Shown: positions 6,877 through 29,888, counted from the stretch's first letter. The stretch: 32,000 nucleotides of DNA from Erysipelotrichaceae bacterium (GCA_963676105.1 OY781039.1:720001-752000), one strand, 5' to 3'. Translations and numbers: made by a program. The notes: generated by a model not told the origin, from the letters alone.

Positions 6877-6920
6877 AATAACTTTCGAATATTTCATTTG
6901 AAATGTTTTCGAAAGTTATT
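6877..6920 (-). terminator. Terminator of the 566-aa gene with an operator-like palindrome in its loop
   Basis: ATAACTTTCGAA (6878-6889) pairs with TTCGAAAGTTAT (6908-6919). On the minus strand it is followed by TTTTGTTTGTT. The loop carries ATATTTCATTTGAAA (6889-6903). Confidence 0.6.
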
Positions 6921-6927
6921 ATTTAAA

Positions 6928-8628: not shown

Positions 8629-8738
8629 TTTGTACCTCTTTCTTTCAGTTCAGAGTTCATAATATCAAATATAAAGATAAAATGAAACTATTTTTGTAAA
8701 TTAATGAAAACAAATTATGTAAATAAATGTAACAAAAC

Positions 8739-11641: not shown

Positions 11642-11678
11642 ATGTTTTAACTCCTTATAAGTTTAAGGGACATAAAAC

Positions 11679-12944: not shown

Positions 12945-12998
12945 GTGAGACCTCCTCATATTGCTTAATCATTATAGCATAGCCCTTAGCACTGTCAA

Positions 12999-13733: not shown

Positions 13734-13779
13734 ACATCTTTATGTGTGAAGTGATTTGTCTATGGTAAACTTTTAATAG

Positions 13780-14787: not shown

Positions 14788-14810
14788 AAAACATCTCGCG
14801 ATGTTTTTTT
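14786..14810. terminator. Bidirectional terminator
   Basis: AAAAAACATC / GATGTTTTTT stem with a TCGC loop, between convergent genes. Confidence 0.7.
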
Positions 14811-14811
14811 C

Positions 14812-15393
14812 TTATACTTTATAACGAAAGCCAATATCAGCTTTCGTGAAGCGTTTATAGTTTTTAATCAAACGTTTAATTTTGAAACCTCTAAAGATAA
14901 TGATAGAGATAGCTTCCCATAAGAAGACCCATCCTCCAACAATGACAATCTCACTTAAGGTATAGGCAAGAATATGATCTCTATGCCCTACGCCTAGATA
15001 GGATGAAGTCAGTAATACAACTGAGACAAATAAGTAAATCAGAGCGTTCTTCACAATGCGAATAAACTTATTCTGTTCAAGTTCAATATAGAAACTATAG
15101 AAGGTTTTAAACCATTGTCTTAAAACTGCTTCCCTAGTTTCATTCTTTATTTCATCTGAGAAATAAAAACGAATGTCAATGGCTTCATTGATAGGAATAT
15201 CATCTATAGAATCTTCTAAAAAACTTAAAAGTTCAGGATGAATATCCTTGCGTTTAAAGGGTGCATGATCCCAGTCATTGAAGATGGCAGAGTAATTAGA
15301 TAATGAGATTTCAATGATAAAATTGCCATTATCTGGATTACGATCATATAACTTTTCAACTAAATGCTTGGTTTTGCTCATTGTGGTACACAC
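14812..15393 (-). CDS. Hypothetical membrane protein (soluble N-terminal part, two C-terminal TM helices)
   Basis: ORF with coding-like composition and hydrophobic segments LIYLFVSVVLLTS and IVIVGGWVFLWEAISIIIF. The start is GTG 15393 or ATG 15381. Confidence 0.55.
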   Translation of the reverse strand: MCTTMSKTKHLVEKLYDRNPDNGNFIIEISLSNYSAIFNDWDHAPFKRKDIHPELLSFLEDSIDDIPINEAIDIRFYFSDEIKNETREAVLRQWFKTFYSFYIELEQNKFIRIVKNALIYLFVSVVLLTSSYLGVGHRDHILAYTLSEIVIVGGWVFLWEAISIIIFRGFKIKRLIKNYKRFTKADIGFRYKV

Positions 15394-15973
15394 CCATCTC
15401 TTCTTCTATTTCATCGCTTGCATATTCATATTGTTCTTCATAGAAATAAGAAACATCTAATCCTTTGAAGAAGATCACTATCATTGATTAATATCTTTCT
15501 TAAACTTTCAATCAATAAAGTACTATCAACCATAGATGTCTTCAAATGTCTCGTTTAGCAGTTGTTCTAAATGCGCACAATTTTCCTTAATAAAAGCGGT
15601 AATCGCAAATTGAAATCCAGACTTTGATAAATTAATTTATCTTATTTTTCAGCACAATCAAAGTTGTCTATAAATTATATTTCATGAAGCGTAAAAAGTG
15701 CTTGAATTTTAGCGAAATAAATCTTTTTTATAGTTTTATTTGGCCAAAAGCGAACCACATTTTGCTTACTAACTCGCTCTTCTTCTTTTTTTAGGACGGC
15801 ATTTTTTCAATGACTAATTTATTATTTATCATTATGATTTACCTATATTTAAAGTATATCATGTCTAAAATCATCTGTTTGTCATTACATTTTGGTTGAC
15901 TAAATATTGAAGATAACATATCATTCATAAGATTGTATTTTTATACAAGGAAAGGATTTGATCTAGATCAGCT

Positions 15974-18097
15974 ATGTTTAATCCAAAAAAAATCTTATCT
16001 AAATTTTCAAATTTAAATACACATTCATCAAAAGAACAAATACTTAAAGAAATACTCATGAACGCCATCATTATCCAATTGATATTGGAAATAATGAATC
16101 AACGCTCATTCCTTTTAGGTTTAGCAACACCCCTTTACAACCCAATCATGTTTATATGTAGTGTAGCTTTACTATCTGCATTTTTATCTTTTGGCTTATT
16201 ACTGCCTAAACGACACTTAGGTTATTTAATCGTGGATGCGATTTGGTTATTACTAGGTATCATTAACTTTATTCTATTAAGTTCACGTACAACTCCACTT
16301 ACGGCTATGGACTTTAAAATGTTGACATCTGTCTTCACCGTTATTGGACGTTATTTAAATATATTTGAATTATCCTTATTCTTTATCTTTGTATTAATGA
16401 TCATTCTTTTAATTGGTTTAATCGGCTTTAAAATGCCACGTACTAAATGGAATCCTCATCATGGCGTGATTGGGACAACCCTTTCCTTTATGTTGATGTT
16501 TACAAGTTTCAATTTTGCAGAAGCAACCGGAAACGTTTCAACAAACTTTGGGAATATCGCAAATGCCTATTTAGATTATGGATTAGCTTATAGTTTTGCG
16601 ACAAGTGTTGTTGATAAAGGAATTAATAAACCAGCTAGTTATTCTAGTGATCAAGTACAATCTGTTCTAAATTCTATGAATAATAATGATATTGATACGA
16701 CCGATCTTTCAAACACAGCTGTGAATGGTACGCCAAACATTATTTTTGTACAATTAGAATCTTTCTTTGATGCGAAACGTATTAAAGCTTTATCTTTTAG
16801 TGAAGATCCCATTCCTAACTTAACAGAGCTACAAGAAAACTACTCTTCAGGTTATGTTACGGTTCCATCCATTGGGGCTGGGACAGTAAATACAGAATTT
16901 GAAATCATTACGGGTATGAATCTTGACTATTTTGGAGCTGGTGAATACCCATATAAAACAATTCTATCTGAAACAACCGTTGAAAGTTATGCCTATGATT
17001 TATCAGAATTGGGTTATCATACACAAGCTCTGCACAATAATATGGGAACCTTCTATTCACGAAATACCGTCTATCCTAAATTAGGTTTTGATGGCTTTAC
17101 ATCCATCGAATATATGGAAAATATTGAATATAACGAATTAGGTTGGGCAGATGATAGTATGCTTGTCCCTGAAATCATAAAAACACTTGATTCAACCCAA
17201 GAACAAGACTTTATCTTTGCGGTAAGTGTACAACCACATGGTAAATACCCTGATTATCCTGTCATTGAAAACCCGGCAATTGAAATCTACGCAAGCTCAT
17301 CCATTCCACCAATGAACAATATGGATTCTATTGGATCTTTACCAACCATTGAAGTTGAGGATGCTGTCACAAGTGAAGAATTCTCAATGGAAGAGGCAAC
17401 GTACTATAAATATTTATATTACGTGAATCAAATTCACGAAGAAGATGAGTTTGTCGGTGAACTCATTGAAAGTTTAAAAGATTATGCAGAGCCAGTGGTT
17501 GTCGTATTTTATGGTGATCATCTTCCAACATTAGATATAACCGAAGAAGATCTCACAGATGGATCCCCTTTCCAAACTGAATATGTGATTTGGGATAACA
17601 TAGGTCTAGAAAGAATTGAAAGAGACGTTAATGCTTATCAATTAAGTTCAATCCTTATGGAACGCTTAGGTTACACGAATGGTCTCATTAACAAATACCA
17701 TCAAGAAATGGTTGATAATATTGATTATGAAGCTGAACTTGAACTTCTACAATACGATATGTTATATGGAAACAAAGATGCCTATAATGGTGTTAACCCA
17801 TACGAAAAAACTAAAATGATGATGGGTATTTCTCCTATTAGTATTACTGATGTTGAGCCAATGGGCGAAGCTATATTTATACATGGTGAGAATTTCACCA
17901 TGTGGAGTGAAGTCTATTTTGACAATCATCAAAAAAACAGCGTATTTGTTGATGAAAAAACCTTAATCGTCACTGATGGTGAATATGAAGATGGACTAAG
18001 TGTCAAAGTTAGCCAAGTCACAGATACAGGACGAAAACTAAGTAGCACAGAAGCGTATATCGTTGGTGATGTTGCTTATATTGTTGAAGAATCTTAA
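15974..18097 (+). CDS. LTA synthase (LtaS)-family sulfatase-domain membrane protein
   Basis: Multi-TM N-terminus. NIIFVQLESFFD and GAGTVNTEFEIITG (nucleophilic Thr context) are typical of LtaS/phosphoglycerol transferases. It has an extra C-terminal beta-rich (IPT-like) extension. Confidence 0.8.
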   Translation: MFNPKKILSKFSNLNTHSSKEQILKEILMNAIIIQLILEIMNQRSFLLGLATPLYNPIMFICSVALLSAFLSFGLLLPKRHLGYLIVDAIWLLLGIINFILLSSRTTPLTAMDFKMLTSVFTVIGRYLNIFELSLFFIFVLMIILLIGLIGFKMPRTKWNPHHGVIGTTLSFMLMFTSFNFAEATGNVSTNFGNIANAYLDYGLAYSFATSVVDKGINKPASYSSDQVQSVLNSMNNNDIDTTDLSNTAVNGTPNIIFVQLESFFDAKRIKALSFSEDPIPNLTELQENYSSGYVTVPSIGAGTVNTEFEIITGMNLDYFGAGEYPYKTILSETTVESYAYDLSELGYHTQALHNNMGTFYSRNTVYPKLGFDGFTSIEYMENIEYNELGWADDSMLVPEIIKTLDSTQEQDFIFAVSVQPHGKYPDYPVIENPAIEIYASSSIPPMNNMDSIGSLPTIEVEDAVTSEEFSMEEATYYKYLYYVNQIHEEDEFVGELIESLKDYAEPVVVVFYGDHLPTLDITEEDLTDGSPFQTEYVIWDNIGLERIERDVNAYQLSSILMERLGYTNGLINKYHQEMVDNIDYEAELELLQYDMLYGNKDAYNGVNPYEKTKMMMGISPISITDVEPMGEAIFIHGENFTMWSEVYFDNHQKNSVFVDEKTLIVTDGEYEDGLSVKVSQVTDTGRKLSSTEAYIVGDVAYIVEES

Positions 18098-18104
18098 TTA
18101 ACGA

Positions 18105-18129
18105 GTCATCTAGAAATAGATGGCTTTTT
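18105..18129 (+). terminator. Terminator of the LtaS-family gene
   Basis: GTCATCTA-GAAA-TAGATGGC hairpin followed by TTTTT. Confidence 0.65.
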
Positions 18130-18154
18130 ATTATCAAGCGTTTATTTTTTTCAT

Positions 18155-18178
18155 AAAAAAACCCATATTAAATGGGCT
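18155..18178 (-). terminator. Orphaned tRNA terminator left behind at attL
   Basis: On the minus strand, directly after the orphan tRNA 3' fragment: GCCCAT-TTAAT-ATGGGT followed by a T7 run. Confidence 0.6.
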
Positions 18179-18186
18179 TAGTGAAC

Positions 18187-18206
18187 TAATGGCGTCCTCA
18201 GAGGGA
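18187..18206. repeat. attL core: TAATGGCGTCCTCAGAGGGA (orphan copy of the tRNA-Arg 3' end)
   Basis: Identical 20-mer at 28508-28527. The flanking bases differ on both sides. Confidence 0.9.
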
Positions 18207-18311
18207 AACAAAAAATACGTTATATTAAAGTTCACCAAATTACATAAAACGTTATTTTAAGCCATTTTAGGACATTATCTTTTTTTAAAATTTATAATAA
18301 TTTAAAAATTT

Positions 18312-18334
18312 TGCTAGACTTTTGCTAGACTTTT
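18312..18334. repeat. Tandem 11-bp repeat TGCTAGACTTT x2 (candidate integrase arm-type site, P' arm)
   Basis: The 23-nt string TGCTAGACTTTTGCTAGACTTTT is identical to 28441-28463 and lies 105 bp inside the attL core. Confidence 0.6.
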
Positions 18335-18344
18335 AATAAAGTAT

Positions 18345-18959
18345 TTACTTTTCGTTCATTACCTTATTAGGATCTATTGTTTGTATTTTGGATTTTAAAA
18401 ATTTTGTTAGATCATCTCTATCAATCAATTCAACAAAATTTGATTCTGCTAATTGTATTGCACTTTTGCTAAAGTAGTTATTAGTAACTACAATCGCATT
18501 ATTACATTGATAATGTTTTTTACCAGCAACAACTTCTTGAACAGCTTTCAAGTTTACTTTAGAGTTAAATCTTTTACACTGAATCGCATATTTCAAACCA
18601 TCTTTGTAAGCAATTATGTCAACACCAAAATCACCAGAATATTTAGTTCCCTCAACATCTTCATAATCATTATTTCTAAGATAATCTATGATTAACTCTT
18701 CAAATTCATAACCTGACATTACATCGATATTTTCTAACGTTAATTCTAAAGCATGATAGTAGATTAATTCTTTATTATTAATAAAACTATCTTGACGACT
18801 ACTATTTTTGATTCTATTAAAAATAAAAATAATTATTTCTTTTATTCCATAGTAGATAAAATTTGCTAACGCTACTAATAATGCTCCAAATATCATTAAT
18901 AATGCAGTTATAATGTTTTCAGCAGCTTTATTATTTGGTTTTCTTCCCTCAATACCCAT
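18345..18959 (-). CDS. Membrane-anchored Mrr_cat-type restriction-endonuclease-domain protein
   Basis: N-terminal TM helix (ITALLMIFGALLVALANFIYYGI). The C-terminal half GYEFEELI...GDFGVDIIAY...AIQCKRF...AIVVTNNYFSKSA matches the Mrr/PD-(D/E)xK D...D..QxK core. Confidence 0.7.
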   Translation of the reverse strand: MGIEGRKPNNKAAENIITALLMIFGALLVALANFIYYGIKEIIIFIFNRIKNSSRQDSFINNKELIYYHALELTLENIDVMSGYEFEELIIDYLRNNDYEDVEGTKYSGDFGVDIIAYKDGLKYAIQCKRFNSKVNLKAVQEVVAGKKHYQCNNAIVVTNNYFSKSAIQLAESNFVELIDRDDLTKFLKSKIQTIDPNKVMNEK

Positions 18960-19258
18960 AATTTCTCCTTAAAGTAAATACTACTTCATTATTTACTAAA
19001 ATCTTAACAAAATATGATTAACATATCTAAATATTTTTTTACTACCATAAATTTTTATAAAACTAATTTTTAATTATGAAGATTTAGCAAACTAATATCA
19101 TTGTTTGCTTTGTATTTAATAATATCGTTTATATCCTCCGACAATTTATAAAAATTAAATCAATTAATTTACTGATTAAAATTTAAACTAAAACTTTGAA
19201 TTTAAGAAGGATCACAATAAACCAAAAATTTGATAGTAATACTTTTTTCATTAATTAA

Positions 19259-19302
19259 ACTAGTGTTCTACTAGTGTTTTACATATGTTCTACATATGGA
19301 AA
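19259..19302. repeat. Four 11-bp-phased units (ACTAGTGTTCT, ACTAGTGTTTT, ACATATGTTCT, ACATATGGAAA), followed by GAAAAT x3
   Basis: Read directly from the sequence. An inverted, reshuffled copy of the same unit types lies at 25262-25305. Confidence 0.8.
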
Positions 19303-19456
19303 ATGAAAATGAAAATATAATTATTATTTATTATTAAGCATTTAATAATAAAGACTAAATAATATAAGGATAGAAAAATAAAACATTTTATTATTGTCTA
19401 ACTAAAATGGACATTTAAGTTTTAGTCATGTAATCTTAAAGTGTAATGAGGTATAT

Positions 19457-19873
19457 ATGGAAACAAATCAAAAAGGTAAAGTCTTAGTTACATATAAAAA
19501 TGATAAACATGAATATGTTGAGTTAAATTCCGAAATGGAAGAAGCACTTGCTGGTTTAGAAAAAATTAAAGAAGATATTATAAAACTTAAGCTACTACGC
19601 AATGAGTTACAAGAAAGTCTAAAACAATCAGAAAAAAACATGGTAGCTGAATTATTAAAAACTAAACAGTTTAATTTGAATGGTAAAAGCAAATCAAAAA
19701 GACTTAATCTATACATTCAACCAGAAACACTTGAAGATATTAGAATTGCTGCAAATTTAATGAATATAAGTATCAATGAAATGGTTAACATTCTATTAGA
19801 AGATCGATTAACAGCAATAAGGAATATACCAAGTTTTATAAATGCCAAAAATGAACTAATTGAAAAAGAATGA
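19457..19873 (+). CDS. Coiled-coil protein with a C-terminal ribbon-helix-helix-like DNA-binding domain
   Basis: SD GAGG 7 nt upstream. The C-terminal RLNLYIQPETLEDIRIAANLMNISINEMVNILLEDRL has a strand-helix-helix pattern like CopG/Arc. Confidence 0.55.
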   Translation: METNQKGKVLVTYKNDKHEYVELNSEMEEALAGLEKIKEDIIKLKLLRNELQESLKQSEKNMVAELLKTKQFNLNGKSKSKRLNLYIQPETLEDIRIAANLMNISINEMVNILLEDRLTAIRNIPSFINAKNELIEKE

Positions 19874-19908
19874 TTAAAATTCTTTTTTTTTGTTATTTTT
19901 AAATTTAG

Positions 19909-19966
19909 TGTTGTTTTGGCACTATTATAGTGCTACAATGGCACTATAAAAGAAGTGATAGTTATA
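19909..19966. promoter_or_regulatory. Operator-like dyads upstream of the 63-aa RHH gene
   Basis: GCACTAT-T-ATAGTGC (19909-19923), a third GCACTAT half-site (19931-19937) and a perfect 12-bp palindrome TAGGTATACCTA (19955-19966). Confidence 0.5.
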
Positions 19967-20038
19967 GGTATACCTAAAATTATTTGGTTTTAAAAACATT
20001 CTACTTACTTTTCAAAAGAATCAAGAGGTTTAATAACA

Positions 20039-20230
20039 TTGAAAAAAAACAAACAAATTGGTAGACCAAGAAAAGATCCAAATTTAAGAAGAAGTAATAG
20101 GCTTGTAGTTAAATTAGATCGTTTAACATATGAATCATTTATTAAGAAGTGCATCCATGATGATATTCCTATTAATAAAAAAATGACTTATTTGATTCAT
20201 AGTTACTTGGACGAAGACATAAGCGAATAA
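20039..20230 (+). CDS. Small ribbon-helix-helix (CopG-like) protein
   Basis: 63 aa with a TTG start. GRPRK basic tail, then a beta-strand (RLVVKLDRLTY) and two helices. Confidence 0.5.
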   Translation: MKKNKQIGRPRKDPNLRRSNRLVVKLDRLTYESFIKKCIHDDIPINKKMTYLIHSYLDEDISE

Positions 20231-20346
20231 CAGGAGTGTTATTTACACTAGTCAGAGGATTAGATGTCGTCGTAAAACTGGTTATCATTCCTAAAAAAAA
20301 TGAAAAGTTCTTCAGAGTTATTTATTAACTCAAATTCTTCGTAAGT

Positions 20347-20498
20347 GGTTAAAGTTCCACACAAAAACTATCTTTTAAGTTCATAGTTCCTTTCTATGAT
20401 GGTTAGTATTCCAGTCAAAAATACAAAATTCCATAAGCTAATAGTTCCATGTTACTTATGGCATTACCCCCTTAATGGTTAGAGTTCCATTCAAAAAC
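20347..20498. repeat. Three 22-bp iteron-like direct repeats GGTTArnkTTCCAnnCAAAAAy plus TTCCA partial copies
   Basis: GGTTAAAGTTCCACACAAAAAC (20347), GGTTAGTATTCCAGTCAAAAAT (20401), GGTTAGAGTTCCATTCAAAAAC (20477). Partial copies are at 20381-20390 and 20427-20452. All lie within a 358-bp non-coding gap. Confidence 0.75.
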
Positions 20499-20588
20499 TC
20501 AACTATTCTATTTAAAAGGTAAATGATCCTTTAAATCATTAGTGGATAACCACTTAAAAGCTTTGAACAAAGCAAGAAAGGCAATTAA

Positions 20589-21515
20589 ATGCAAAAAAGT
20601 AAATATGGTATTCAACAGTTTCTAAAAGAAAACAATCTTACCGAAAACGAATATAGACAAATTTTCAAAAAGATTGTTCACAATGAACCTCTAAACGTTC
20701 CGGAAACAAAATCAATGATTAATTTCATTGATAATAAAAACAACCCTGTAATGCTCCCGAATGAGCAGTCAGATGAATTAATTGATTCATCAAATAATAG
20801 TAGTGAACTAATAAGAAATTTAGATCATCTATTCAACATTAATAGTAAAGATACTAGATTCAGTTTCCCTGTTGCTGTTATTGAAGAATCTGAAAACACA
20901 TTAAAACAATTAGAAGCAAGTTATAAGACAAGTGGATTATTTATCAAAATCTCAGAGTCATATGCTTTAACTCCTAATATTGATGACATTATCTTTATTG
21001 GATTAAAAAATCAATTTGTTAGTTTTATCGATTCAAAGGTTATTACAGCTGATGGTTCTGATTTATCACACTATGGGTTACCAGTTGCTGGTAGCGGAAC
21101 AGATGGTGCTTATGTGCTTGATACAGATTTAGTGCAAACAACATCAATTACAGAAGCAAATTTAATAAGTTTATCAAAAATGGTAAAAGGACATCCAAAA
21201 TCAAAATACATTATGAATGAAACTACATTTTTAGATAATGTCTTACCACTAATGGCAACAAGTAACTTCATCACACAAAACAGTGATGGGAAATACTTAA
21301 TTGGGCAAAAAGAAATTATTTTAAATGAGAATGTACCAAGTGATGTTATTTATGCGAGTGATTTATCTTACTTAGTTGGTGATTACTCTTTAGAGTTTGC
21401 CGCAAGAAATCTAATTAAAGAATTTATGAATGAGTATAGATTACTTGTAAAAAGTGTTCTATTACCAGCTGCTGGTTATGGTGCATTTGCGAAATTAGAA
21501 ATTGTTGCTGAATAG
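20589..21515 (+). CDS. Putative HK97-fold major capsid protein
   Basis: 308 aa. Its C-terminal third (YLIGQKEIILNENVP...LVGDYS...EYRLLVKSVLLPAAGYGAFAKLEI) follows the Phage_capsid pattern l.G.pv..s..v...vGDf...r...r....AFakL, as in staphylococcal 80alpha-type capsid proteins. Confidence 0.6.
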   Translation: MQKSKYGIQQFLKENNLTENEYRQIFKKIVHNEPLNVPETKSMINFIDNKNNPVMLPNEQSDELIDSSNNSSELIRNLDHLFNINSKDTRFSFPVAVIEESENTLKQLEASYKTSGLFIKISESYALTPNIDDIIFIGLKNQFVSFIDSKVITADGSDLSHYGLPVAGSGTDGAYVLDTDLVQTTSITEANLISLSKMVKGHPKSKYIMNETTFLDNVLPLMATSNFITQNSDGKYLIGQKEIILNENVPSDVIYASDLSYLVGDYSLEFAARNLIKEFMNEYRLLVKSVLLPAAGYGAFAKLEIVAE

Positions 21516-21556
21516 CAAATAATATTCATTATTAGCTGAAAGGCTTGGAGGGAAAT

Positions 21557-21820
21557 ATGAATACAAAATCGTTAGAAGTGATTCTTAATCAATTAGAGGA
21601 AGTAAGTTTAGAAATGGATAATCTCAAAGGTGTTCTAGATAATCTAAGTTTACATAATGCAATTAGTTTAGATGGACTTAATGAAATTAACGCTAAATCT
21701 TTCGATAGTGCTGCATTTGTAATTAAAACACTTAGAAAAGAAATTGATAATGTTACAGACACAATGAGACATGAATATTCTTCTAGATTTGATCAAGATA
21801 CTTTATTAGAAATCAAATAA
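21557..21820 (+). CDS. Hypothetical coiled-coil protein (between the capsid-like and tape-measure-like genes)
   Basis: The SD GGAGGG precedes ATG 21557, so the TTG at 21545 in the track is unlikely. No recognisable motif. Confidence 0.5.
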   Translation: MNTKSLEVILNQLEEVSLEMDNLKGVLDNLSLHNAISLDGLNEINAKSFDSAAFVIKTLRKEIDNVTDTMRHEYSSRFDQDTLLEIK

Positions 21821-21939
21821 AGAAAGGAAGTGTTAATATCGAACTATTTAGATTATTTGGATCAATTCTTATTGATGACCAAGATGCAATTGATACTTTA
21901 AAAAAATCTGAAAAAAATGCTAAAGCATCAGCTAATGCT

Positions 21940-23319
21940 ATGAATGATTTATCCAAAAAAGCAAGTGCAATGGGTAAAGCATTAGCAATTGGCGTTGGTG
22001 CAGCTGTTACATCACTTGGTGGGTTAGTGGCAAAATCTATTGATACAACAGATCGCATTGATAAATTATCTCAAAGTTTGGGAATGTCTACCGAAGGTTT
22101 TCAAGAATGGGATTATATTTTAGGACAAAATGGTGTTTCTATTGACTCTATGACAACTGGCATGAAAACACTAACAAACATGACTGATGATCTTAAAAAA
22201 GGTAGTAAAACAGCAACTGATGCATTTAGTCGTTTAGGAATTAGTTTTGATGATGTAGCGGGTAAAACACAAGAAGATATTTTCAATCTAACTATTGATG
22301 CATTGATGACTGTTACTGATGAAAGTGAAAGAGCTGCATTAGCAAATGATTTACTTGGCAAAAGTGGAGCTGAATTAGCACCATTATTAAATCAAGGTTC
22401 TAATGCTGTTGAAGAATTAAGACAAAATGCTCATGAACTTGGATTAGTTATTGACGAAGAAGCTATTAGTGCTGGTGTAGAGTTAGGTGATACTTGGGAT
22501 GATGTAACAAGGTCATTTGGTGCTATTGCTACTAGAATTGGTACTGAAGTAATGCCAATCGTACAAGACTTTTCAAATTGGATTTTAGACAATATGCCAA
22601 CAATTCAAGAAGTAACTAGTAATGTATTTAATTCAATTTCTAACTCAATTAAATGGGTTACAGATAATTCAAAATGGCTTATTCCAGTATTAGGTGGATT
22701 AGTTACTGGATTCATGGCATTAAGCATAATTGGATCTGTTACAGCATGGATGCAAAAATATGGTGAAGTTACAACATTTACTCAAATTGCATCAGCATTA
22801 CTTAATTCAACTATGTTAGCCAATCCATTTGCATGGGTAGCGTTGGCTATTGGTGGATTAGTAGCAGCAGGTATAGCTCTATGGATGAACTGGGACACAG
22901 TTAAAGTAAAAGCAACTGAACTATGGGAAAGCATTAAATCAGTATTTGGTAAAATTAAAGATTTTGTATCGAGTGTTTGGGACACAGTTAAGTCAGTTGT
23001 TAAATTACCAAAGATAAATATTCAAGGAAGTTTAAATCCTTTAACATGGCTTACACAAGGAATGCCAGAGTTTAGTGTTAGCTGGAATGCTGATGGTGCA
23101 ATATTCAAGAAACCTACAATCTTTGATACACAATTTGGTTATCAAGGTGTAGGCGAAGCAGGACCGGAAGTTGTTATGCCTTTAGATCGTTTAGATTCAA
23201 TGTTGAAAAACAAAGGTGGTAATCAAATTACAGTTTATTTCCAACCACAAACAATGAGCGATCAAGAGCTTGATAATGCATTTAATTATATTAACAGACG
23301 ATTTGGAATGGAAATATAG
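21940..23319 (+). CDS. Short phage tail tape-measure-like protein
   Basis: FSRLGISFDDVAGKTQEDIFNLTIDAL...ERAALANDLLGKSGAELAPLL core, central hydrophobic helices, and a C-terminal GVGEAGPEVVMPL motif typical of Firmicute phage tape-measure proteins. The frame is open and tape-measure-like back to 21793 (see finding). Confidence 0.7.
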   Translation: MNDLSKKASAMGKALAIGVGAAVTSLGGLVAKSIDTTDRIDKLSQSLGMSTEGFQEWDYILGQNGVSIDSMTTGMKTLTNMTDDLKKGSKTATDAFSRLGISFDDVAGKTQEDIFNLTIDALMTVTDESERAALANDLLGKSGAELAPLLNQGSNAVEELRQNAHELGLVIDEEAISAGVELGDTWDDVTRSFGAIATRIGTEVMPIVQDFSNWILDNMPTIQEVTSNVFNSISNSIKWVTDNSKWLIPVLGGLVTGFMALSIIGSVTAWMQKYGEVTTFTQIASALLNSTMLANPFAWVALAIGGLVAAGIALWMNWDTVKVKATELWESIKSVFGKIKDFVSSVWDTVKSVVKLPKINIQGSLNPLTWLTQGMPEFSVSWNADGAIFKKPTIFDTQFGYQGVGEAGPEVVMPLDRLDSMLKNKGGNQITVYFQPQTMSDQELDNAFNYINRRFGMEI

Positions 23320-23322
23320 AAC

Positions 23323-23655
23323 ATGGAAAAATATTACTTATTCCTAATCGATATGACTAAAGGTAAACCAAAAGAAATACCAATTCCAATGAATGAAGAA
23401 CAAATCATTAAATTCATTAACAAACAAGATGAAGAAACACTTAATAAAAATTTCATTTATGGATTTAGATTAGGTAAAAATGGAATACAAAACGTTAAGT
23501 GTTTCCATTATGCAAAACATAGCTATGCTTTTGTAAATGACTTCATTGATTCAAAGGTAAACGAACTTTTAAAAAATCATAAAAAAAATAATATGTTTAA
23601 GTTTATAAAACATCAAAAGGAATCATCTAATGAAAAAAATCAGAAGCATCGCTAA
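23323..23655 (+). CDS. Hypothetical protein
   Basis: 110-aa ORF packed tightly after the tape-measure-like gene on the operon strand. No motif recognised. Confidence 0.45.
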   Translation: MEKYYLFLIDMTKGKPKEIPIPMNEEQIIKFINKQDEETLNKNFIYGFRLGKNGIQNVKCFHYAKHSYAFVNDFIDSKVNELLKNHKKNNMFKFIKHQKESSNEKNQKHR

Positions 23656-23863
23656 AGAAAACAATACTGAGATTTTGTATAAACTCTTATACATCAATAA
23701 AGTAACTGGTGAAACTAACATGAGTAATCGATATGTTTCAGAAGCTAGAGCAAAGCTTATTAGCGAAATAGATGAACACAAGAACACAAGGATCATTGGT
23801 ATTCCAAATGTAAGTGTTGCTAGTGGTGATGGTGATAATAATTTCATTGTTTTCAAAAATTAA
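23630..23863 (+). CDS. Hypothetical protein
   Basis: 77-aa ORF on the operon strand, overlapping the previous ORF's end. It is mirrored by an antisense ORF, so coding status is uncertain. Confidence 0.35.
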   Translation: MKKIRSIAKENNTEILYKLLYINKVTGETNMSNRYVSEARAKLISEIDEHKNTRIIGIPNVSVASGDGDNNFIVFKN

Positions 23864-23876
23864 TTAGAACCTTAAT

Positions 23877-23932
23877 ACCTGCCCCCATGTAACATGGTAA
23901 TGGCAAAAGCATTCCACCGGCCGGGTACAATC
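23877..23932. other. GC-rich palindrome-bearing patch upstream of terS (candidate cos/packaging site)
   Basis: CCTGCCCCCATGTAACATGGTAATGGCA...CCACCGGCCGGGT contains the CCATG-TAA-CATGG hairpin and the CCGGCCGG palindrome. It is the most GC-rich non-coding stretch in an otherwise AT-rich element. Confidence 0.35.
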
Positions 23933-24087
23933 ATCTAACTCAATAAAAAATCGTTTAGGGTGGTGTGGTTAAAGCATCAAAAGAAAGAAACATTTAAACC
24001 GATTTCAAAGGATTTTGAGTGATATTGAAAAAGTTCAAAAAAGAAAACCCATTTAAAAAAGAAATTGAATGATTAATAATTTGAAAT

Positions 24088-24582
24088 TTGAAATCACACT
24101 CCCCTATCAAATTTATTGATAAAAAAACAAATAACAGGAAACGGACTATAGCTATAACTCTAGAGAAATATTCAAACTCTCACATGATAAGGGGTTATAG
24201 AGAAAGGATAATAACAAGAATGATTAAAATTGAGCAAACACATAAAGAAATGCTTATTGAAAATTTAAATAATACTTTATTAGAGATATTCTCAACTATC
24301 GATGATAACAAGCTTACGATCATAAAACCATTAATCAACAAAGCTGCATTTATGTCAGTAACATTGGATGAATTGCAAGACAACATTTTAAAAAGTGGAA
24401 TTTCTGAAACTTACAAAAATGGTGCAAATCAATATGGTAATAAAGAATCAACAGAAATTAGAGTCTATAACTCTATGATCAAAAACTATCACAATGTTGT
24501 TAAACAACTTCTGGATCTATTACCACCAGATTCAAGTGAATACGTTGTTGGGACAAGTTTATTAGAATTTGCAAACAGATAA
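24088..24582 (+). CDS. terS: Phage terminase small subunit, P27-like family
   Basis: LINKAAFMSVTLDELQDNILKSGISETYKNGANQYGNKESTEIRVYNSMIKNYHNVVKQLLDLLP fits the P27-family pattern (l.e.l...G......ng.....np......n........l..elgl.P). The start is uncertain: TTG 24088, ATG 24184 or ATG 24220. Confidence 0.6.
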   Translation: MKSHSPIKFIDKKTNNRKRTIAITLEKYSNSHMIRGYRERIITRMIKIEQTHKEMLIENLNNTLLEIFSTIDDNKLTIIKPLINKAAFMSVTLDELQDNILKSGISETYKNGANQYGNKESTEIRVYNSMIKNYHNVVKQLLDLLPPDSSEYVVGTSLLEFANR

Positions 24583-24719
24583 TAAGTTAAATAATAACAA
24601 GCCTGTAATGGCTTAAAAATGGCTAATAATAGCAAAATAATTATCAACCACTAATGGGTGCGTGAAAATAAAAATAAGAAACAAACGCACTCATTATAAA
24701 TAGAAAGGTGCGTTTTAAA

Positions 24720-24965
24720 ATGCAATACAAAACTACAAGAAAAGAAATGATTAGAAATACTATCATTCAGAGAAATATATCAAATAATGATTTTGAAATT
24801 ACAAGATTATCTGAAATCATTGTTAGATTCTCACCAAGCAATTATGAATTAAAAAAAGGTCTAGATTTAATAATCAAGTACAAAGATAAGGTAGATAATC
24901 TAGCTGGATACACACATAAGATTTTTACAAATATAAAAAAGAATAGAGAAATGTATCATGGCTAA
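24720..24965 (+). CDS. Hypothetical protein
   Basis: The SD AGAAAGG precedes ATG 24720. Its end overlaps the next gene's start by 8 nt (24958-24965). No motif recognised. Confidence 0.45.
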   Translation: MQYKTTRKEMIRNTIIQRNISNNDFEITRLSEIIVRFSPSNYELKKGLDLIIKYKDKVDNLAGYTHKIFTNIKKNREMYHG

Positions 24966-25632
24966 AGATCCTGCATTTCTATTCTATAGTTCTGATTTCC
25001 TCGTAGGTACTTATGGAATGTCAAACGAAGAAGTAGGACAGTATATAAGATTACTTTGTTTACAACATCAAAACAATGGGAAACTGACTCAAGATATTGT
25101 TGAAAGTGTTGGCATAGAAGAACATTCTAAAGTTCTTTCAAAATTTAAATTTGAAGACGGCTTCTATTTTAATGAAAGATTACTTCAAGAAACTGAAAAA
25201 AGAACTAAGTTCTCTGAAAGCAGAAGAAACAACAGATTAAAAAGAGAAGAAAATAAGAAATCTAACACTAGTAAAACACTAGTAAAAGATATGTTAAACA
25301 CTAGTAACAATAATGATAATAAAGAATTAAATCAAAATAAAGATTTGATTAAAGAAATCATTCAATATCTAAATGAAAAAACAAACAAGAACTTTAGATA
25401 TGTAAAGAAAACTAGTGATCTAATAACAGCTAGAATTAATGAAAAATTTACTTTAGAAGATTTTAAAACAGTAATTGATAATATGACTGATAAATGGCTT
25501 AAAGATAATAATATGAATCAATACCTAAGACCAGAAACATTGTTTGGCACAAAATTTGAATCATATTTAAATGTAAAAACTACAACAAGTAAAAACACAT
25601 CCAATTACGGGGAACTAGGGAGAATTGTATGA
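24958..25632 (+). CDS. Phage replisome organiser-like protein (DUF1376/YdaU N-domain plus Phg_2220_C C-domain)
   Basis: N-terminal DPAFLFYSSDFLVGTYGMSNEEVGQYIRLLCLQ. C-terminal IIQYLNEKTNKNFRY...ARINEKFTLEDFKTVIDNM...YLRPETLFGTKFESYLN. Confidence 0.75.
   Translation: MAKDPAFLFYSSDFLVGTYGMSNEEVGQYIRLLCLQHQNNGKLTQDIVESVGIEEHSKVLSKFKFEDGFYFNERLLQETEKRTKFSESRRNNRLKREENKKSNTSKTLVKDMLNTSNNNDNKELNQNKDLIKEIIQYLNEKTNKNFRYVKKTSDLITARINEKFTLEDFKTVIDNMTDKWLKDNNMNQYLRPETLFGTKFESYLNVKTTTSKNTSNYGELGRIV
25262..25305. repeat. Four 11-bp-phased units inside the organiser gene (reverse complement: ACTAGTGTTTA, ACATATCTTTT, ACTAGTGTTTT, ACTAGTGTTAG); candidate origin iterons
   Basis: CTAACACTAGT AAAACACTAGT AAAAGATATGT TAAACACTAGT, read directly. 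The array lies in the linker between the two protein domains and has the same unit types as 19259-19302, on the opposite strand. Confidence 0.75.
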
Positions 25633-26597
25633 AAAAAATAAATGAATTAATGAATAATGAATTAGATAAAAAAGAAATAAAAACAGAAAGTATTGATATA
25701 GCTAGTTTGAAACCATTTTTAGGGCATATCCCTTTCACAGTTGAACATGAAAATGGTTTGTGTACAGCTGGAATTTCAATAAATGGTAAAGCTGGAATTT
25801 ATAACTTATTCACAGATGAAGAAATGATGATAAATCATAATTACGTACATTTGAGATCATTTCATGACAATATAAACGAAAAATTTATGCAAGGTAAAGT
25901 GAAATGTCTTGTTTGTGGTGATACAGGATACCAGCCTATTGCACTAAATGAATTAATACATATTAAAGGTACTGATTATTTAGTTAAACAAGGAGCATTA
26001 GAAAAAGTAAGATGCAAATATTGTGATATTAGCAACAGCAATCCATTAAATATGAATAATTTTAGGACAACATATCAATGGCAAAAGGATGCAAAAAATG
26101 TTGCATTATCATTTATAGAAGATTTAAATCACCTTAATTATTGGTTTTATTTCTCTGGACAAGTAGGATCTGGTAAGACTCATTTGAGCTATGCAATCGC
26201 AAATGAATTAAAACATAAATTTGGATATGAAATAGTAATAAAAAATTGGATGGAATTAGCAACATTTTTAAAAGAAAATACAAATACAAAATCATATAGC
26301 AATGAAATTAGTTATTTAAGCAAAGTTAAAGTATTAGTAATTGATGATCTTTTCAAAAACGGGAATAAAGAAAAACCAACTACAGCAGACAACAGAATTG
26401 CAATGCAAATCTTAAATAAGCGTTATGAAGCCAAATTAATTACAATTATTAATTCTGAATTTTCATTGGGTGAAATTATAAATAATTTTGATTCAGCATA
26501 TTCAAGGATTTACGAGATGTCTAAGAATGGTAGTTATATTTTTCATATAAATAATGATCCTAAAAAGAATATTAGAATGAACCCTATGAAAGATTAG
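25629..26597 (+). CDS. DnaC/IstB-like AAA+ helicase-loader ATPase with an N-terminal Cys4 zinc-ribbon-like segment
   Basis: Walker A GQVGSGKTHL, Walker B VLVIDDLF, and CLVCGDTG...CKYCD. Its start overlaps the organiser stop (ATGA). Confidence 0.75.
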   Translation: MKKINELMNNELDKKEIKTESIDIASLKPFLGHIPFTVEHENGLCTAGISINGKAGIYNLFTDEEMMINHNYVHLRSFHDNINEKFMQGKVKCLVCGDTGYQPIALNELIHIKGTDYLVKQGALEKVRCKYCDISNSNPLNMNNFRTTYQWQKDAKNVALSFIEDLNHLNYWFYFSGQVGSGKTHLSYAIANELKHKFGYEIVIKNWMELATFLKENTNTKSYSNEISYLSKVKVLVIDDLFKNGNKEKPTTADNRIAMQILNKRYEAKLITIINSEFSLGEIINNFDSAYSRIYEMSKNGSYIFHINNDPKKNIRMNPMKD

Positions 26598-26617: not shown

Positions 26618-27739
26618 ATGGTTAGAAAGAATAAGGAAGGTGTTTACTATTTTTATGTCAGATACACTGATAATCAAGGTAATTTAAAACAAAAATACTC
26701 AAAGAGCAAGAAATGGAAAACTAAAAAAGAAGCTTTAAAAGCTGAAAATGATTTCTTAGAATCAGTCAAAAAAGACATTGATTTAGTTTTTGATAACATT
26801 ACACTTGATAAACTTTATAGTATTTATTTTGAATCAAAATCACATCATCTTAAAAAGAAATCTTTATACACATTAGATCACGCATATAGGCGACACATAA
26901 GCCCAAAATTTGGCAAACAAATAATAAATACCATAACAAAGCAAGATATTATGATATGGCAAAAACATTTATTAGCAAAAGGTTTTAAAAATCAGTATTT
27001 AGAGAAGATACAAGCCAATTTAAGAAGTATTCTTATCTTTGGAGTTAAATATGACTATATTGAAAAAAACCCTTTTAAAATCGATTTTATAAAGGATAAA
27101 ACTGAAACCAAAAAAGAAATGTCATATTGGAACTTACAAGAATATGAAAAATTTATTAGTCATGTAGATGATGAATTGTATGCAGCATTATTTGCTACTT
27201 TGTATTGGGGTGGTTTAAGAATTGGTGAAGCATTAGCTTTAAGAGTAAGTGATATTAACTTTAAAACTAAAATCATAAACATTAATAAAACATATAATAG
27301 CGTTCACCAGATCGATACAACTCCAAAAACGCATAATTCAAATCGAAATATCATTATGACAGATGGACTTTGTAATCAACTTAAAAAGATTGTTGATTCA
27401 TATAAAAACTACGCTGGAATTGATACAGGATATGATCCAATTATATTTGGATATAATGGTAGACTTGCTCCAACGACAATAAAAAGAAAACAAAAAGAAG
27501 CTTGTGAAGAAGCTGGTGTTAAAGTTATCAGAATTCATGATTTTAGGCACTCTCACGTATCATTATTATTAAACTTAGGTGAAGATGCCTTTGTTATTGC
27601 AAAACGCTTAGGACATAGCGTAGAGATGGTAAACAACGTCTATGGACACTGGTTCTTAGACTCACAAAAGGAATTGGTAGATCGTTTGAATCAAGCTGAG
27701 AATAAAGCCAATAAATTAAGAGAAACTAGAATTAACTAG
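26618..27739 (+). CDS. int: Tyrosine integrase (phage integrase family) with an N-terminal arm-binding-type domain
   Basis: Catalytic context GLRIGEALALRVSDI (R), IRIHDFRHSHVS (HxxR) and LGHSVEMVNNVYGHW (H...Y). The N-terminal GVYYFYVRYTDNQGNLKQK resembles integrase Arm-DNA-binding domains. Confidence 0.9.
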   Translation: MVRKNKEGVYYFYVRYTDNQGNLKQKYSKSKKWKTKKEALKAENDFLESVKKDIDLVFDNITLDKLYSIYFESKSHHLKKKSLYTLDHAYRRHISPKFGKQIINTITKQDIMIWQKHLLAKGFKNQYLEKIQANLRSILIFGVKYDYIEKNPFKIDFIKDKTETKKEMSYWNLQEYEKFISHVDDELYAALFATLYWGGLRIGEALALRVSDINFKTKIININKTYNSVHQIDTTPKTHNSNRNIIMTDGLCNQLKKIVDSYKNYAGIDTGYDPIIFGYNGRLAPTTIKRKQKEACEEAGVKVIRIHDFRHSHVSLLLNLGEDAFVIAKRLGHSVEMVNNVYGHWFLDSQKELVDRLNQAENKANKLRETRIN

Positions 27740-27750
27740 TTTCTTTTTTT
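27722..27750. terminator. Bidirectional terminator between int and the convergent membrane-protein gene
   Basis: GAAACTAG-AATTAA-CTAGTTTC followed by T7. The hairpin includes the int TAG stop codon. Confidence 0.6.
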
Positions 27751-28348
27751 ATTCAAAAAAGTATTTCAATGTCATTTTAGTTTTTAAATAATATCTTGCT
27801 CCCACAGAATCAATTACATATACATCAATCTTTGCATTTAAGTCATAATCATCTTTTAACAAAAGCTTAAGATTTTCAATTGGAAAATATAGGTCATGCG
27901 ATTCTTCAGATAAAAGAGCTATTGGCATATTTTCAGTTGTTAAAGTCATTGGATTTTGTGGAAAAAGTAAAAAATGCTGTTTTTTTATAATTAATCTCCA
28001 CGATTGAATATTTACACTTCTGACACCAGTGTTAGATATACATAAATCTAAAAATTCCTTATTATATCCATTAGCATTAACAACAGTTGATTTATTCAAA
28101 GATAATTTTAATCTTTTAGAATTATTATAATTGTGTTGGAATAAGGCAACAAACACAGCTAAAAACGTAGCAGTAGATCCAATTGCACTCCATAATAATT
28201 GTCTATCAATTAATCCTGTTTCATTATCAATAAATAAAACCAACGCTAACTTTCTAGAAAATATTATAAATACTAACATTACTAAACATAAGATACTAAT
28301 ATTTATGTTTTTTTTGTTTCTTTCGTAAAATTGATTAATTTTTCTCAT
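27749..28348 (-). CDS. Hypothetical two-TM membrane protein (cargo between int and attR)
   Basis: 199 aa. Two TM helices (ISILCLVMLVFIIF, AIGSTATFLAVFVALF) followed by a beta-rich soluble domain. No family recognised. Confidence 0.55.
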   Translation of the reverse strand: MRKINQFYERNKKNINISILCLVMLVFIIFSRKLALVLFIDNETGLIDRQLLWSAIGSTATFLAVFVALFQHNYNNSKRLKLSLNKSTVVNANGYNKEFLDLCISNTGVRSVNIQSWRLIIKKQHFLLFPQNPMTLTTENMPIALLSEESHDLYFPIENLKLLLKDDYDLNAKIDVYVIDSVGARYYLKTKMTLKYFFE

Positions 28349-28440
28349 ATTTTTATCATCCTTTATTATTGATTTAATTATATAATTTTGCTTTTTTTTA
28401 ATGTATGAAAAACACTTACATTACTATTTTTAGTAAAAAC

Positions 28441-28463
28441 TGCTAGACTTTTGCTAGACTTTT
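28441..28463. repeat. Tandem 11-bp repeat TGCTAGACTTT x2 (candidate integrase arm-type site, P arm)
   Basis: Identical to 18312-18334. It ends 44 bp before the attR core. Confidence 0.6.
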
Positions 28464-28507: not shown

Positions 28508-28527
28508 TAATGGCGTCCTCAGAGGGA
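28508..28527. repeat. attR core: TAATGGCGTCCTCAGAGGGA
   Basis: Identical to 18187-18206. Bases 28511-28527 are the last 17 nt of the tRNA, including CCA. Confidence 0.9.
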
Positions 28528-28587
28528 TTCGAACCCCCGACCGTGCGCTTAGAAGGCGCATGCTCTATCCAGCTGAGCTATGAGGAC
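28511..28587 (-). tRNA. tRNA-Arg (anticodon UCU), CCA encoded
   Basis: Manual cloverleaf: acceptor GTCCTCA/TGAGGAC, D arm GCTC-AGCTGGATA-GAGC, anticodon arm TGCGC-CTTCTAA-GCGCA, variable loop CGGTC, T arm GGGGG-TTCGAAT-CCCTC, discriminator G, CCA. Confidence 0.9.
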
Positions 28588-28628
28588 AAGTGCTTTACTA
28601 TAATAACAAACTCTAAACCATTTGAAAA

Positions 28629-29129
28629 CTAAAAGCGTGAAAAGAATCCTTTTTTCTTTTCTTTAGGTTCATCGATTGCTTTGCGTTCGACTGTAAACTT
28701 TCCATTTTGATATGTTATGAGTGCATAACTTGGTAAAGAATAATCACGATTATAGTAAATAGAACCTGGATTAACTAAAGTAATCCCATTCTTTTCTTCA
28801 ACATGAAAGATATGGGTATGTCCATATAACATTAATTGGCAGTTTTCAGCATAAGCATACTCACTTAAACGATCTGTTAAATGCATTGGAGATATGCGAT
28901 CACCGTGTTGAACTAAAATGCGTAAACCTTCAAGTTCAATAATTAAACGATGTGGATAATCAAAATACATATCATTATTGCCTTGAACACTCACAAAGCC
29001 ATCTAAGAGATCTTCTGAACATTCACTATCCCCACAATTGATATACGCATCGGCAGTTGGATGTAGTTCTCTAAGTTTGCGATAGACTTCATTGCGACCA
29101 TGCGCATCACTGACAACGACTATCTGCAT
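28629..29129 (-). CDS. YfcE/MJ0936-family metallophosphoesterase
   Basis: VVSDAHG, CGDSE, QGNND and YGHTH motifs. 166 aa. Confidence 0.85.
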   Translation of the reverse strand: MQIVVVSDAHGRNEVYRKLRELHPTADAYINCGDSECSEDLLDGFVSVQGNNDMYFDYPHRLIIELEGLRILVQHGDRISPMHLTDRLSEYAYAENCQLMLYGHTHIFHVEEKNGITLVNPGSIYYNRDYSLPSYALITYQNGKFTVERKAIDEPKEKKKGFFSRF

Positions 29130-29870
29130 TTAAAACACCACCTTTTCAAAGATTTCATCAATCCCAAATAAGGTTTTAGCTTGTGCCTCAGCATGGTTTT
29201 TATCACCGGTTGTGATACATCTTGATTGACCTTCGTCAAAGGGTTCATTTTTTAGTGAATTGACCATTGCTTGCTCAGAATCATAGACTTTGACCTGAAA
29301 CTCTTTTTCAATGAGTTTTGAAATTAAAGGATAATGGGTACAGCCTAAAAGCATCGCATCATAAGATAAGTCTTTGATTAAGCTATGAAGATAGTCTTTA
29401 ATGATTGATTCATCATCCATATCTTCGATGTAATTAACCAATTTTGGACAAGCAATCCCTTCTACTTTTGTATCAGGTAAAAGTGCTTCTAAACCTTTTT
29501 TATAGATTTCTGAATTGGTTGTGGCTTGAGTTGCTAGCACACAAAGAGATTCATGTTTTGTATTTTTTAAGGCATCAATGGTTGGCTTGACTAACTCATG
29601 GAATGTGATCATTTTAAACTCATTTTTGAGTTGATCTAAGATCATCGCATTCATGGTATTGCAGGCAATTATAACCTGATGGATATCCTGGCTTAAAAAC
29701 CAGTTCATATTTGCTCTGGCAACATTTAATAATTCATCCCGTGTCTTATTACCATACGGAGCATTCTTTTGATCCGCTAAAAAAGTAAAGGCAGCTTTAG
29801 GGTACGCTTTATGTAAGGCTAAATAGATACGATAACCGCCTAAGCCTGAGTCAATAATTCCATAAGTCAT
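29130..29870 (-). CDS. murI: Glutamate racemase
   Basis: IDSGLGG, ACNTMNA and GCTHYPLI catalytic-Cys motifs. Confidence 0.9.
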   Translation of the reverse strand: MTYGIIDSGLGGYRIYLALHKAYPKAAFTFLADQKNAPYGNKTRDELLNVARANMNWFLSQDIHQVIIACNTMNAMILDQLKNEFKMITFHELVKPTIDALKNTKHESLCVLATQATTNSEIYKKGLEALLPDTKVEGIACPKLVNYIEDMDDESIIKDYLHSLIKDLSYDAMLLGCTHYPLISKLIEKEFQVKVYDSEQAMVNSLKNEPFDEGQSRCITTGDKNHAEAQAKTLFGIDEIFEKVVF

Positions 29871-29888
29871 ATGTTGTATTATACCATT

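Follow-up and report, generated by a model that had tools for sequence, protein, structure and literature searches.

In phage lambda the replication origin lies inside the initiator gene: iterons and then an A/T-rich region occupy the linker of gene O, between the DNA-binding N-terminal part and the loader-binding C-terminal part, and gene P follows. The lambda origin is single and its iterons are inverted repeats of 18-19 bp. In TP901-1 and Tuc2009, temperate phages of lactic acid bacteria, the origin is found inside the replisome-organiser gene and contains direct repeats that replication requires or is predicted to require. Some iteron plasmids carry an extra control array, for example incA of P1, and handcuffing is known in R6K, RK2 and P1. 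For the Bacillus phage SPP1, two repeat regions have been identified as oriL, inside gene 38, and oriR, in intergenic DNA (PMC5737612, PMC6316719). Each region consists of direct repeats and an A/T-rich DNA unwinding element, the organiser G38P has a similar affinity for the two, and in vitro a 356-bp piece of oriL is enough to support theta replication. It has also been proposed that G38P at oriR stalls the fork and triggers the switch to concatemeric replication (PMC5737612, PMC6316719, PMC3485210). The protein fhv_0043 of Francisella phage KIRK contains Phg_2220_C, and an origin is predicted inside its gene (PMC7924643). Here we analysed a stretch of 32,000 nucleotides from an Erysipelotrichaceae bacterium (GCA_963676105.1 OY781039.1:720001-752000), called the window below, in which a 10.3-kb island integrated at tRNA-Arg carries two arrays of 11-bp units: array A in intergenic DNA and array B inside the gene of a replisome organiser of 224 residues. 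We propose, with a probability of about 0.6, that both arrays are bound by the organiser of the island and that each would form, with its A/T-rich flank, an origin-type module. By analogy with SPP1, we read array A as an oriR-like and array B as an oriL-like module.

Anatomy of the two arrays

On the + strand, array A (19259-19302) reads ACTAGTGTTCT, ACTAGTGTTTT, ACATATGTTCT and ACATATGGAAA in consecutive units. Array B (25262-25305), taken as its reverse complement, gives ACTAGTGTTTA, ACATATCTTTT, ACTAGTGTTTT and ACTAGTGTTAG, and its units on the coding strand are AACACTAGTAA, AACACTAGTAA, AAGATATGTTA and AACACTAGTAA. Both arrays were returned by Tandem Repeats Finder with a period of 11, each holds four units, and the sequences, coordinates and phasing of the two 44-bp arrays given in the original prediction were confirmed. 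The two unit types, AC-TAG-TGTT and AC-ATA-TGTT, differ in three central bases only. Array A extends past position 19302 into the (GAAAAT)3 repeat, and this tail is part of the element (Table 1).

Five exact copies of the 9-mer ACTAGTGTT are present in the window, all of them within array A or array B. In shuffled sequences 0.25 copies were expected, with a maximum of 2, and none of 100 shuffles reached five. When one mismatch was allowed, 11 copies were observed for 8.6 expected, which is not above chance; the signal therefore resides in the clustered exact copies. The arrays are not products of chance. They had been described as inverted, which holds for the 9-mer, found on opposite strands in A and B, but not for the ACTAGT core, which is a palindrome, nor for the modules, which share one polarity (in each, the A/T-rich tail stands to the right of the repeats, along the gene direction). 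A repeat finder also paired 19269-19293 with 25282-25306, over 25 nucleotides that are 88% complementary. The hexamer ACTAGT had likewise been thought over-represented in the element: nine sites were counted in the window, all inside the island, where about three are expected, and the excess is made up of the five array copies, the four single sites matching the expectation. Single near-copies of the units do exist, at 19896-19902, 20244-20252 and 25408-25419. In the host DNA of the window (1-18187 and 28528-32000, 21.7 kb), no ACTAGT was found for 2.7-4.2 expected, a weak hint that it is avoided there. A glycyl-radical enzyme encoded in this host DNA shares 92% identity with one from a genome of 1.95 Mb and 82% with those of Candidatus Stoquefichus and Clostridium butyricum, which points to a host among the Bacillota.

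Both arrays adjoin DNA of low stability. Among all 100-bp stretches of the island, 19308-19407 (88% A+T), directly beside array A, is the least stable, and the least stable 40-bp stretch lies within it, at 19312-19351; 19308-19407 is a candidate DNA unwinding element. On the side of array B, 25280-25379 ranks sixth for low stability among these 100-bp stretches and is the least stable one within the coding sequence of the island. Array B is devoid of the (GAAAAT)n tail that is typical of its closest relatives.

The placement of array B in a linker between two domains was also confirmed. Pfam analysis of the organiser gave Phg_2220_C at residues 134-205 (E 1e-28) and a weak DUF1376 match at residues 9-78 (24.6 bits for a cut-off of 30.1), and residues 102-116, encoded by array B, fall between the two. 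In the AlphaFold model, the sole disordered internal stretch (residues 106-122) coincides with this region, and the N-terminal domain (N-domain) is built of helices and a beta-hairpin; the predicted local distance difference test score was 80.5 for the full-length organiser and 85.9 for its N-domain. No lambda-O-type match was present, Pfam giving only DUF1376, Phg_2220_C and a weak DnaB_2, and a sequence-profile search of the PDB with the organiser returned nothing.

The organiser shares the Phg_2220_C domain with SPP1 G38P, where it is found at residues 157-233 (E 2e-20). In BLASTP, the C-terminal 100 residues of the two proteins are 38% identical (E 3e-18), whereas no similarity was detected between the N-terminal halves, so that the origin-binding domains are unrelated. 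The linker of SPP1 gene 38 contains 4.6 copies of the 11-bp repeat AGAAACGACAC and then 3.6 copies of the 9-bp A-rich repeat AACAATGAT, placed directly before the sequence '..VVEYLNEKT' where the shared domain starts. Because of this homology with G38P and oriL (PMC5737612), array B is a credible origin, and its earlier designation as such appears reasonable.

Iterons across the organiser family

The organiser family is very large, with more than 7,800 matches. In the alignment its linker is of variable length and often reads '..DM.N.SNTY.xHMENEN..', and an 'HMENEN'-like motif was present in 60 of the 120 closest homologues. At the DNA level, this linker holds two to six copies of (A)CATATG spaced by 11 bp, sometimes by 12 or 22 bp, followed by a tail of 6-mer repeats, (GAAAAT), (GAAACT) or (ATAAAT). 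Frames and spacings were counted at the 27 loci whose linkers contain two or more CATATG. The hexamer occurred in more than one reading frame at 23 of them (39, 33 and 15 copies in the three frames), where it is read as HM, TY(V), IC or SY, and 33 of 60 intervals measured exactly 11 bp. The use of different frames indicates a constraint on the DNA, and the iteron DNA explains the 'HMENEN'-like peptide motif. A repeated peptide (NTSK/NTSN) was considered as the cause of the in-gene repeats and rejected, since the ACTAGT units of array B are read in two frames (NTS, TLV, NTS) and 23 of the 27 relatives are multi-frame. The comparison made in the original prediction with lambda O and Firmicute phages, in which initiator-binding iterons lie in the linker of the initiator gene, was upheld: the position is a rule of the family and the constraint acts on the DNA.

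The repeats follow the N-domain and not Phg_2220_C. Clusters of three or more CATATG were sought in 84 fetched loci; they were found in 18 of the 35 non-redundant loci with the window-type N-domain and in none of the 48 that share the C-terminal domain only (Fisher p = 6e-9). They accompany this N-domain whatever C-terminal domain follows, and 15 of the 18 clusters start 5-56 bp past its end. At locus L011 non-coding DNA upstream of the gene holds the entire module, and at L001, L016, L022, L023 and L040 two CATATG units and a tail make a complete module. Other iteron classes, ACATCGTACG, AAACCTAC, GCCACGG and GCCGTGGCA, are followed by the same 6-mer tail. Many members carry a second iteron set inside the coding part of the N-domain, about 140 bp upstream of the linker array (Table 1). 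In every such member the class of this second set agrees with that of the linker iterons (CATATG, GCCGTGGCA or ACTAGT/ACAAGTGTT), as at L060, where GCCGTGGCA is present in both; the N-domain peptide 'DM..IC..YDE' is probably shaped by DNA. Taken together, the family repeats would be initiator-binding iterons beside an unwinding element, with the N-domain as their putative reader.

Units of the ACTAGT type are not restricted to the island. At L093 (..AACACTAGTTAAACTAGTGGAAAATGAAAATG) and L153 (AACACTAGTAAAACACTAGTAGAACTAGTGGGAAATGGAAAT) they stand at the canonical positions and abut the canonical tail. These two arrays use a 9-bp step and stay in frame 2, which keeps TAG out of frame. By position and tail, ACTAGT-type units are a genuine iteron class of the organiser family. 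A pattern scan of metagenomes gave 94 loci, of which L153 only contained a member of the family. Two others, L107 (8064-8118) and L147 (459-525), hold five to six perfect 11-bp tandem copies of AAAACACTAGT, the unit of array B, which are necessarily non-coding because TAG appears in every third frame; no organiser-family protein was found near them.

Array B and the linker array of L006 (AACATATGTAA, AACATATGAAA, AAGATATGTTA and AACATATGTAA) are colinear and only the cores differ. This colinearity with the canonical linker arrays indicates an orthologous in-gene array in which ACTAGT has taken the place of CATATG at three of the four positions. These three units fall in frames 0, 2 and 0 (T-S, L-V and T-S). 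The odd unit, AAGATATGTTA, is accounted for by the reading frame, since ACTAGT at 25289 would lie in frame 1 and read cAC-TAG, a stop. The array has kept the exact 11-bp phase and avoided the stop frame.

Array A resembles foreign linkers more than the gene of its own island. When 19281-19320 was compared with coding-strand linkers, 14 loci agreed at 31-37 of the 40 positions, for at most 27 in shuffled sequences, and 19282-19320 is identical at 38 of 39 positions to the linker of P0023 (L097 411-449), a protein 47% identical to the organiser of the window. A gene remnant or pseudogene at this site was also considered and rejected: tblastn with 120 homologues matched only 13-24 linker residues (19275-19352). 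That match was the best outside the organiser gene, lacked flanking domains and had a stop codon directly upstream in frame. From these alignments, array A is a putative free-standing origin module, whose two ACTAGTG units would have been added to, or converted from, a four-unit array. Given the full family module and the adjoining least stable DNA, it has the appearance of a second module of the origin type, corresponding to SPP1 oriR, with a predicted unwinding site at least as good as that of array B.

Weighing the readings of the two arrays

In the series of events that we favour, the island would excise as a 10.3-kb circle, and the N-terminal domain of the 224-residue protein would bind the 11-bp-phased units from one side of the helix. 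The A/T-rich tail beside the iterons would melt, and the Phg_2220_C domain, together with the neighbouring DnaC-like protein, would bring in the host replicative helicase. Array B would be the ancestral in-gene origin of the family, with ACTAGT in place of CATATG at three of its four cores and the fourth barred from changing by the in-frame TAG that would result. Array A would be a second complete copy of the family module outside genes, with two new-type units, two old-type units and (GAAAAT)3. Since every third unit would read TAG, ACTAGT iterons are unable to run in 11-bp phase through a reading frame, and this conflict may have driven the full origin module out of the gene. One of the modules would fire, and the other would be a second origin or a high-affinity control region acting by fork arrest (as proposed for oriR), by array pairing or by initiator titration. 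The repeat anatomy, its conservation at the level of the DNA, the tie between repeats and N-domain, the G38P homology and the A/T-rich flanks are shown by the sequences, whereas binding, unwinding and the choice of the firing module are what we infer. The same derived core in five units of arrays lying 6 kb apart argues that one binder selects both. Homology with SPP1 leads us to lean, tentatively, towards array B as the module that fires. Firing from array A, suggested by its intact tail and extreme A/T tract, is somewhat less probable, and the remaining probability falls to the firing of both.

Several observations weigh against this proposal. The N-domain of the window shares 55-61% identity with its CATATG-type relatives and only 37-46% with those of the ACTAGT type, and array A retains two CATATG units, which binding of both arrays by the organiser does not account for. 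A distant second array within 10 kb was seen in none of about 35 other loci. The island is without close relative, its nearest initiator being 56% identical and p138, a protein of 138 residues encoded downstream of array A, an orphan. Foldseek of the N-domain against the PDB gave no significant match (best E 0.7); winged-helix proteins occurred among the weak matches only, so that such a fold is only suggested.

The original prediction took array B as the origin and gave array A the role of an operator, by which the initiator would control or sense the early promoter region. In the form weighed here, array B alone is the origin and the initiator represses or senses the promoter of the leftmost operon, formed by p138 and the downstream genes. 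Iteron-plasmid initiators often autoregulate, array A lies in the 497-bp divergent gap between an Mrr-like gene and p138, 155 bp upstream of the latter, and an exact TATAAT follows its iterons directly (19316-19321). The in-gene position of array B is, moreover, canonical for the family and for SPP1 oriL, the origin that fires (PMC5737612). However, the promoter scan predicted no sigma-70-like promoter reaching its threshold on the + strand of 18960-19456, the TATAAT has no -35 partner, and a better promoter/operator candidate is present at 19906-19949. An operator at this place would control p138 and not the initiator gene, 5.7 kb away, and would need neither the complete module of an origin nor the DNA that melts most easily in the island. 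The operator is thus left without specific support and we consider it unlikely; a regulatory side-effect of initiator binding at array A may nevertheless occur. It is distinctly less probable that the two unit types have two readers, the ACTAGTG units being read by the initiator of the island and the CATATG units by that of a co-resident or helper phage, or the reverse, which would make array A a dual-specificity origin. Such an arrangement would fit the 2 + 2 composition that array A has kept though free of coding constraint, the predominance of CATATG among relatives, several of which have two units and a tail as a complete module, and the satellite-like character of a small 10.3-kb island with an integrase and a tape-measure-like gene and without capsid or terminase. 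Yet the island has its own organiser and loader, a single protein may accept units that differ in three central bases only, and the GATATG unit of array B is explained by the stop-codon constraint alone; to our knowledge, no helper phage of the island has been described. The more specific version, in which the two ACTAGTG units of array A would answer to the island initiator and its two CATATG units to a helper-phage initiator of the same family, is slightly less probable still. If it were true, the island would start replicating when its helper does.

The ACTAGTGTT units could also be operators of a ribbon-helix-helix regulator, either p138 or the 63-residue product of an open reading frame (ORF) at 20039-20230, instead of initiator sites. 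Ribbon-helix-helix proteins bind tandem sub-sites one helical turn apart, and the C-terminus of p138, encoded 155 bp downstream of array A, resembles this type, although its Pfam match to CopG_antitoxin is weak and below threshold (E 1.5e-4). This would, however, give no obvious rationale for an operator inside the linker of an initiator gene. In array B, ACTAGT-type units replace CATATG units in register, and L093 and L153 hold them beside a canonical tail without a p138 homologue; we therefore regard such operators as very improbable. Least probable of all is that one or both arrays are non-functional relics, a decaying in-gene array or a stray gene fragment left by recombination. The missing (GAAAAT)n tail of array B and the better match of array A to foreign linkers than to its own organiser gene would be compatible with decay, but the same derived 9-mer is exact in five units across both arrays, array B retains its phase and its avoidance of the stop frame, and array A has an intact tail beside an extreme A/T tract and no flanking gene remnant. 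We thus retain binding of both arrays by the organiser, with an origin-type module at each, as the preferred reading.

The island and its relation to known systems

The features of the island are collected in Table 1, together with the second iteron sets of the relatives.

Table 1. Coordinates of the arrays, of other island features and of iteron sets in related loci
Feature	Position	Strand	Remarks
Array A iterons	19259-19298	+	Intergenic, 11-bp phase; ACTAGTGTT at 19259 and 19270, ACATATG(TT) at 19281 and 19292
Array A tail	19299-19316	+	(GAAAAT)3, 6-mer repeat conserved after iterons in family members
Array B iterons	25262-25305	+	Inside organiser gene, residues 102-116; AACACTAGT at 25264, 25275 and 25297; AAGATATGTTA at 25286
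Array B tail	25306-25345	+	A/T-rich (AACAATAATGATAATAAAGAA...), 18/21 identical to SPP1 oriL tail
Replisome organiser, 224 residues	24958-25632	+	DUF1376-like N-domain, disordered linker, Phg_2220_C domain
DnaC/IstB-like AAA+ protein	25629-26597	+	Start overlaps organiser stop; matches IstB_IS21, AAA, Bac_DnaA
Tyrosine integrase of the island	26618-27739	+	
Attachment (att) core, left end	18188-18206	+	AATGGCGTCCTCAGAGGGA, repeats 3' end of tRNA-Arg
Attachment (att) core, right end	28509-28527	+	AATGGCGTCCTCAGAGGGA, overlaps 3' end of tRNA-Arg(tct)
tRNA-Arg(tct)	28511-28587	-	Integration site of the island
Mrr-type restriction endonuclease gene	18345-18959	-	E 1e-30; left island end
p138, 138-residue orphan	19457-19873	+	Ribbon-helix-helix-like C-terminus; just downstream of array A
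63-residue ribbon-helix-helix/MobC-like ORF	20039-20230		TTG start, good ribosome-binding site
459-residue ORF, tape-measure-like	21940-23319	+	Similar to the N-terminal region of tape-measure proteins of phages (phrog_8462, E 2e-55)
199-residue membrane protein gene	27749-28348	-	Right island end; without homologues in Pfam or PHROGs
N-domain iteron set, L010	7120-7148		
N-domain iteron set, L024	5190-5207		
N-domain iteron set, L029	10144-10166		
N-domain iteron set, L038	5548-5576		
N-domain iteron set, L060	470-490		
N-domain iteron set, L093	1825-1870		
N-domain iteron set, L153	about 215-250		

The G+C content of the island is 22-30%, against about 35% outside. The DnaC/IstB-like protein is presumed to be the helicase loader, and the Mrr-type and membrane protein genes, the cargo at the two ends, may have a defence role. 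Several unknown proteins, among them a 308-residue ORF product (p308), are also encoded on the + strand. A phage satellite of the PICI/SaPI type would combine an integrase and its own replication module with genes that hijack the packaging of a helper. The island has the integrase, the att sites, the organiser, the loader and the tape-measure-like ORF; no capsid, tail or terminase gene and no recognisable interference gene was seen among the island ORFs. The homologue search found none for p138, and no relatives of the DnaC-like protein or of p308 were found in viral contigs. An IMG/VR scan for AACACTAGTNNAACACTAGT, made for relatives of the island, gave eight loci, all unrelated. In the phage collection, the window-type N-domain was found in one metagenomic record only, unannotated; it is virtually absent from sequenced cultured phages, none of which was found with the full architecture. 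The window showed no enrichment of DnaA boxes, and none near arrays A or B, and its Rfam scan gave tRNA only. GC skew was left unused, as it is confounded by gene orientation.

Three other repeat regions were noted. An 11-bp tandem repeat, TTTTGCTAGAC / TGCTAGACTTT, is present in 2.1-2.4 copies and in direct orientation just inside both island ends (18307-18338 and 28436-28463), and probably represents integrase arm-type binding sites. Between p138 and the 63-residue ORF, 19906-19949 holds a 22-bp tandem pair, TAGTGTTGTTTTGGCACTATTA / TAGTGCTACAATGGCACTATAA, with the palindrome GCACTAT-ATAGTGC (GGCACTAT) around a TACAAT hexamer; it looks like a real early promoter/operator, more convincing than array A. 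In the 715-bp gap upstream of the 308-residue ORF, three to four copies of a 24-28-nucleotide repeat, TGGTTA(A/G)AGTTCCAnnCAAAAAnT, were found at 20278, 20346, 20400 and 20476 (20278-20502); they may form a further array of protein-binding sites, or even a different origin.

These results should be of moderate interest to specialists of phage replication. The island now has two precise origin candidates and a candidate initiator-loader pair. The 'HMENEN'-like motif of phage organisers corresponds to a DNA element, phased CATATG iterons with a (GAAAAT)n tail, so that sequence alone could suffice to call the origin in many metagenomic phage genomes. What seems new is the DNA nature of this motif in a large uncultured family, the natural switches of iteron class and the limit that stop codons set to ACTAGT iterons inside a gene. 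The switches between CATATG, ACTAGTG, GCCACGG and other classes, paired with one small N-domain, offer a compact system for the evolution of initiator specificity, and the family is also suited to studying the constraint of a reading frame on an embedded origin.

With SPP1, the island has in common 11-bp direct repeats and an A/T-rich tail in the linker that precedes the C-terminal domain, a second module of the same polarity in intergenic DNA (oriR, at 4870-4960 between genes 7 and 8, lies on the same strand as oriL) and a loader gene directly downstream of the organiser. They differ in the iterons, AGAAACGACAC in SPP1 and ACTAGTGTT/CATATG in the island, and in the loader, which is DnaC/IstB-like and of another family than G39P; the helicase gene is absent from the island, a 10.3-kb integrated element and not a 44-kb lytic phage. 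The intergenic module of the island is also, unlike that of SPP1, a hybrid of two iteron classes. The organiser with array B and the downstream loader resembles the layout of lambda gene O and its origin, but Pfam detected no sequence relation and the lambda iterons are not 11-bp units. TP901-1, Tuc2009 and KIRK have other N-domains and repeats than the island, a second distant array is not reported for them, and the case of KIRK is a prediction only. As in plasmids of the P1 incA type, a second set of initiator-binding repeats would lie outside the firing origin, and control of this type is a plausible role for whichever array of the island does not fire, although the Rep_3/RepA-type initiators of iteron plasmids are unrelated to the organiser and control by pairing is hypothetical in the island. 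The design is already known from SPP1 and lambda, and the island is a further example of it, not a new mechanism.

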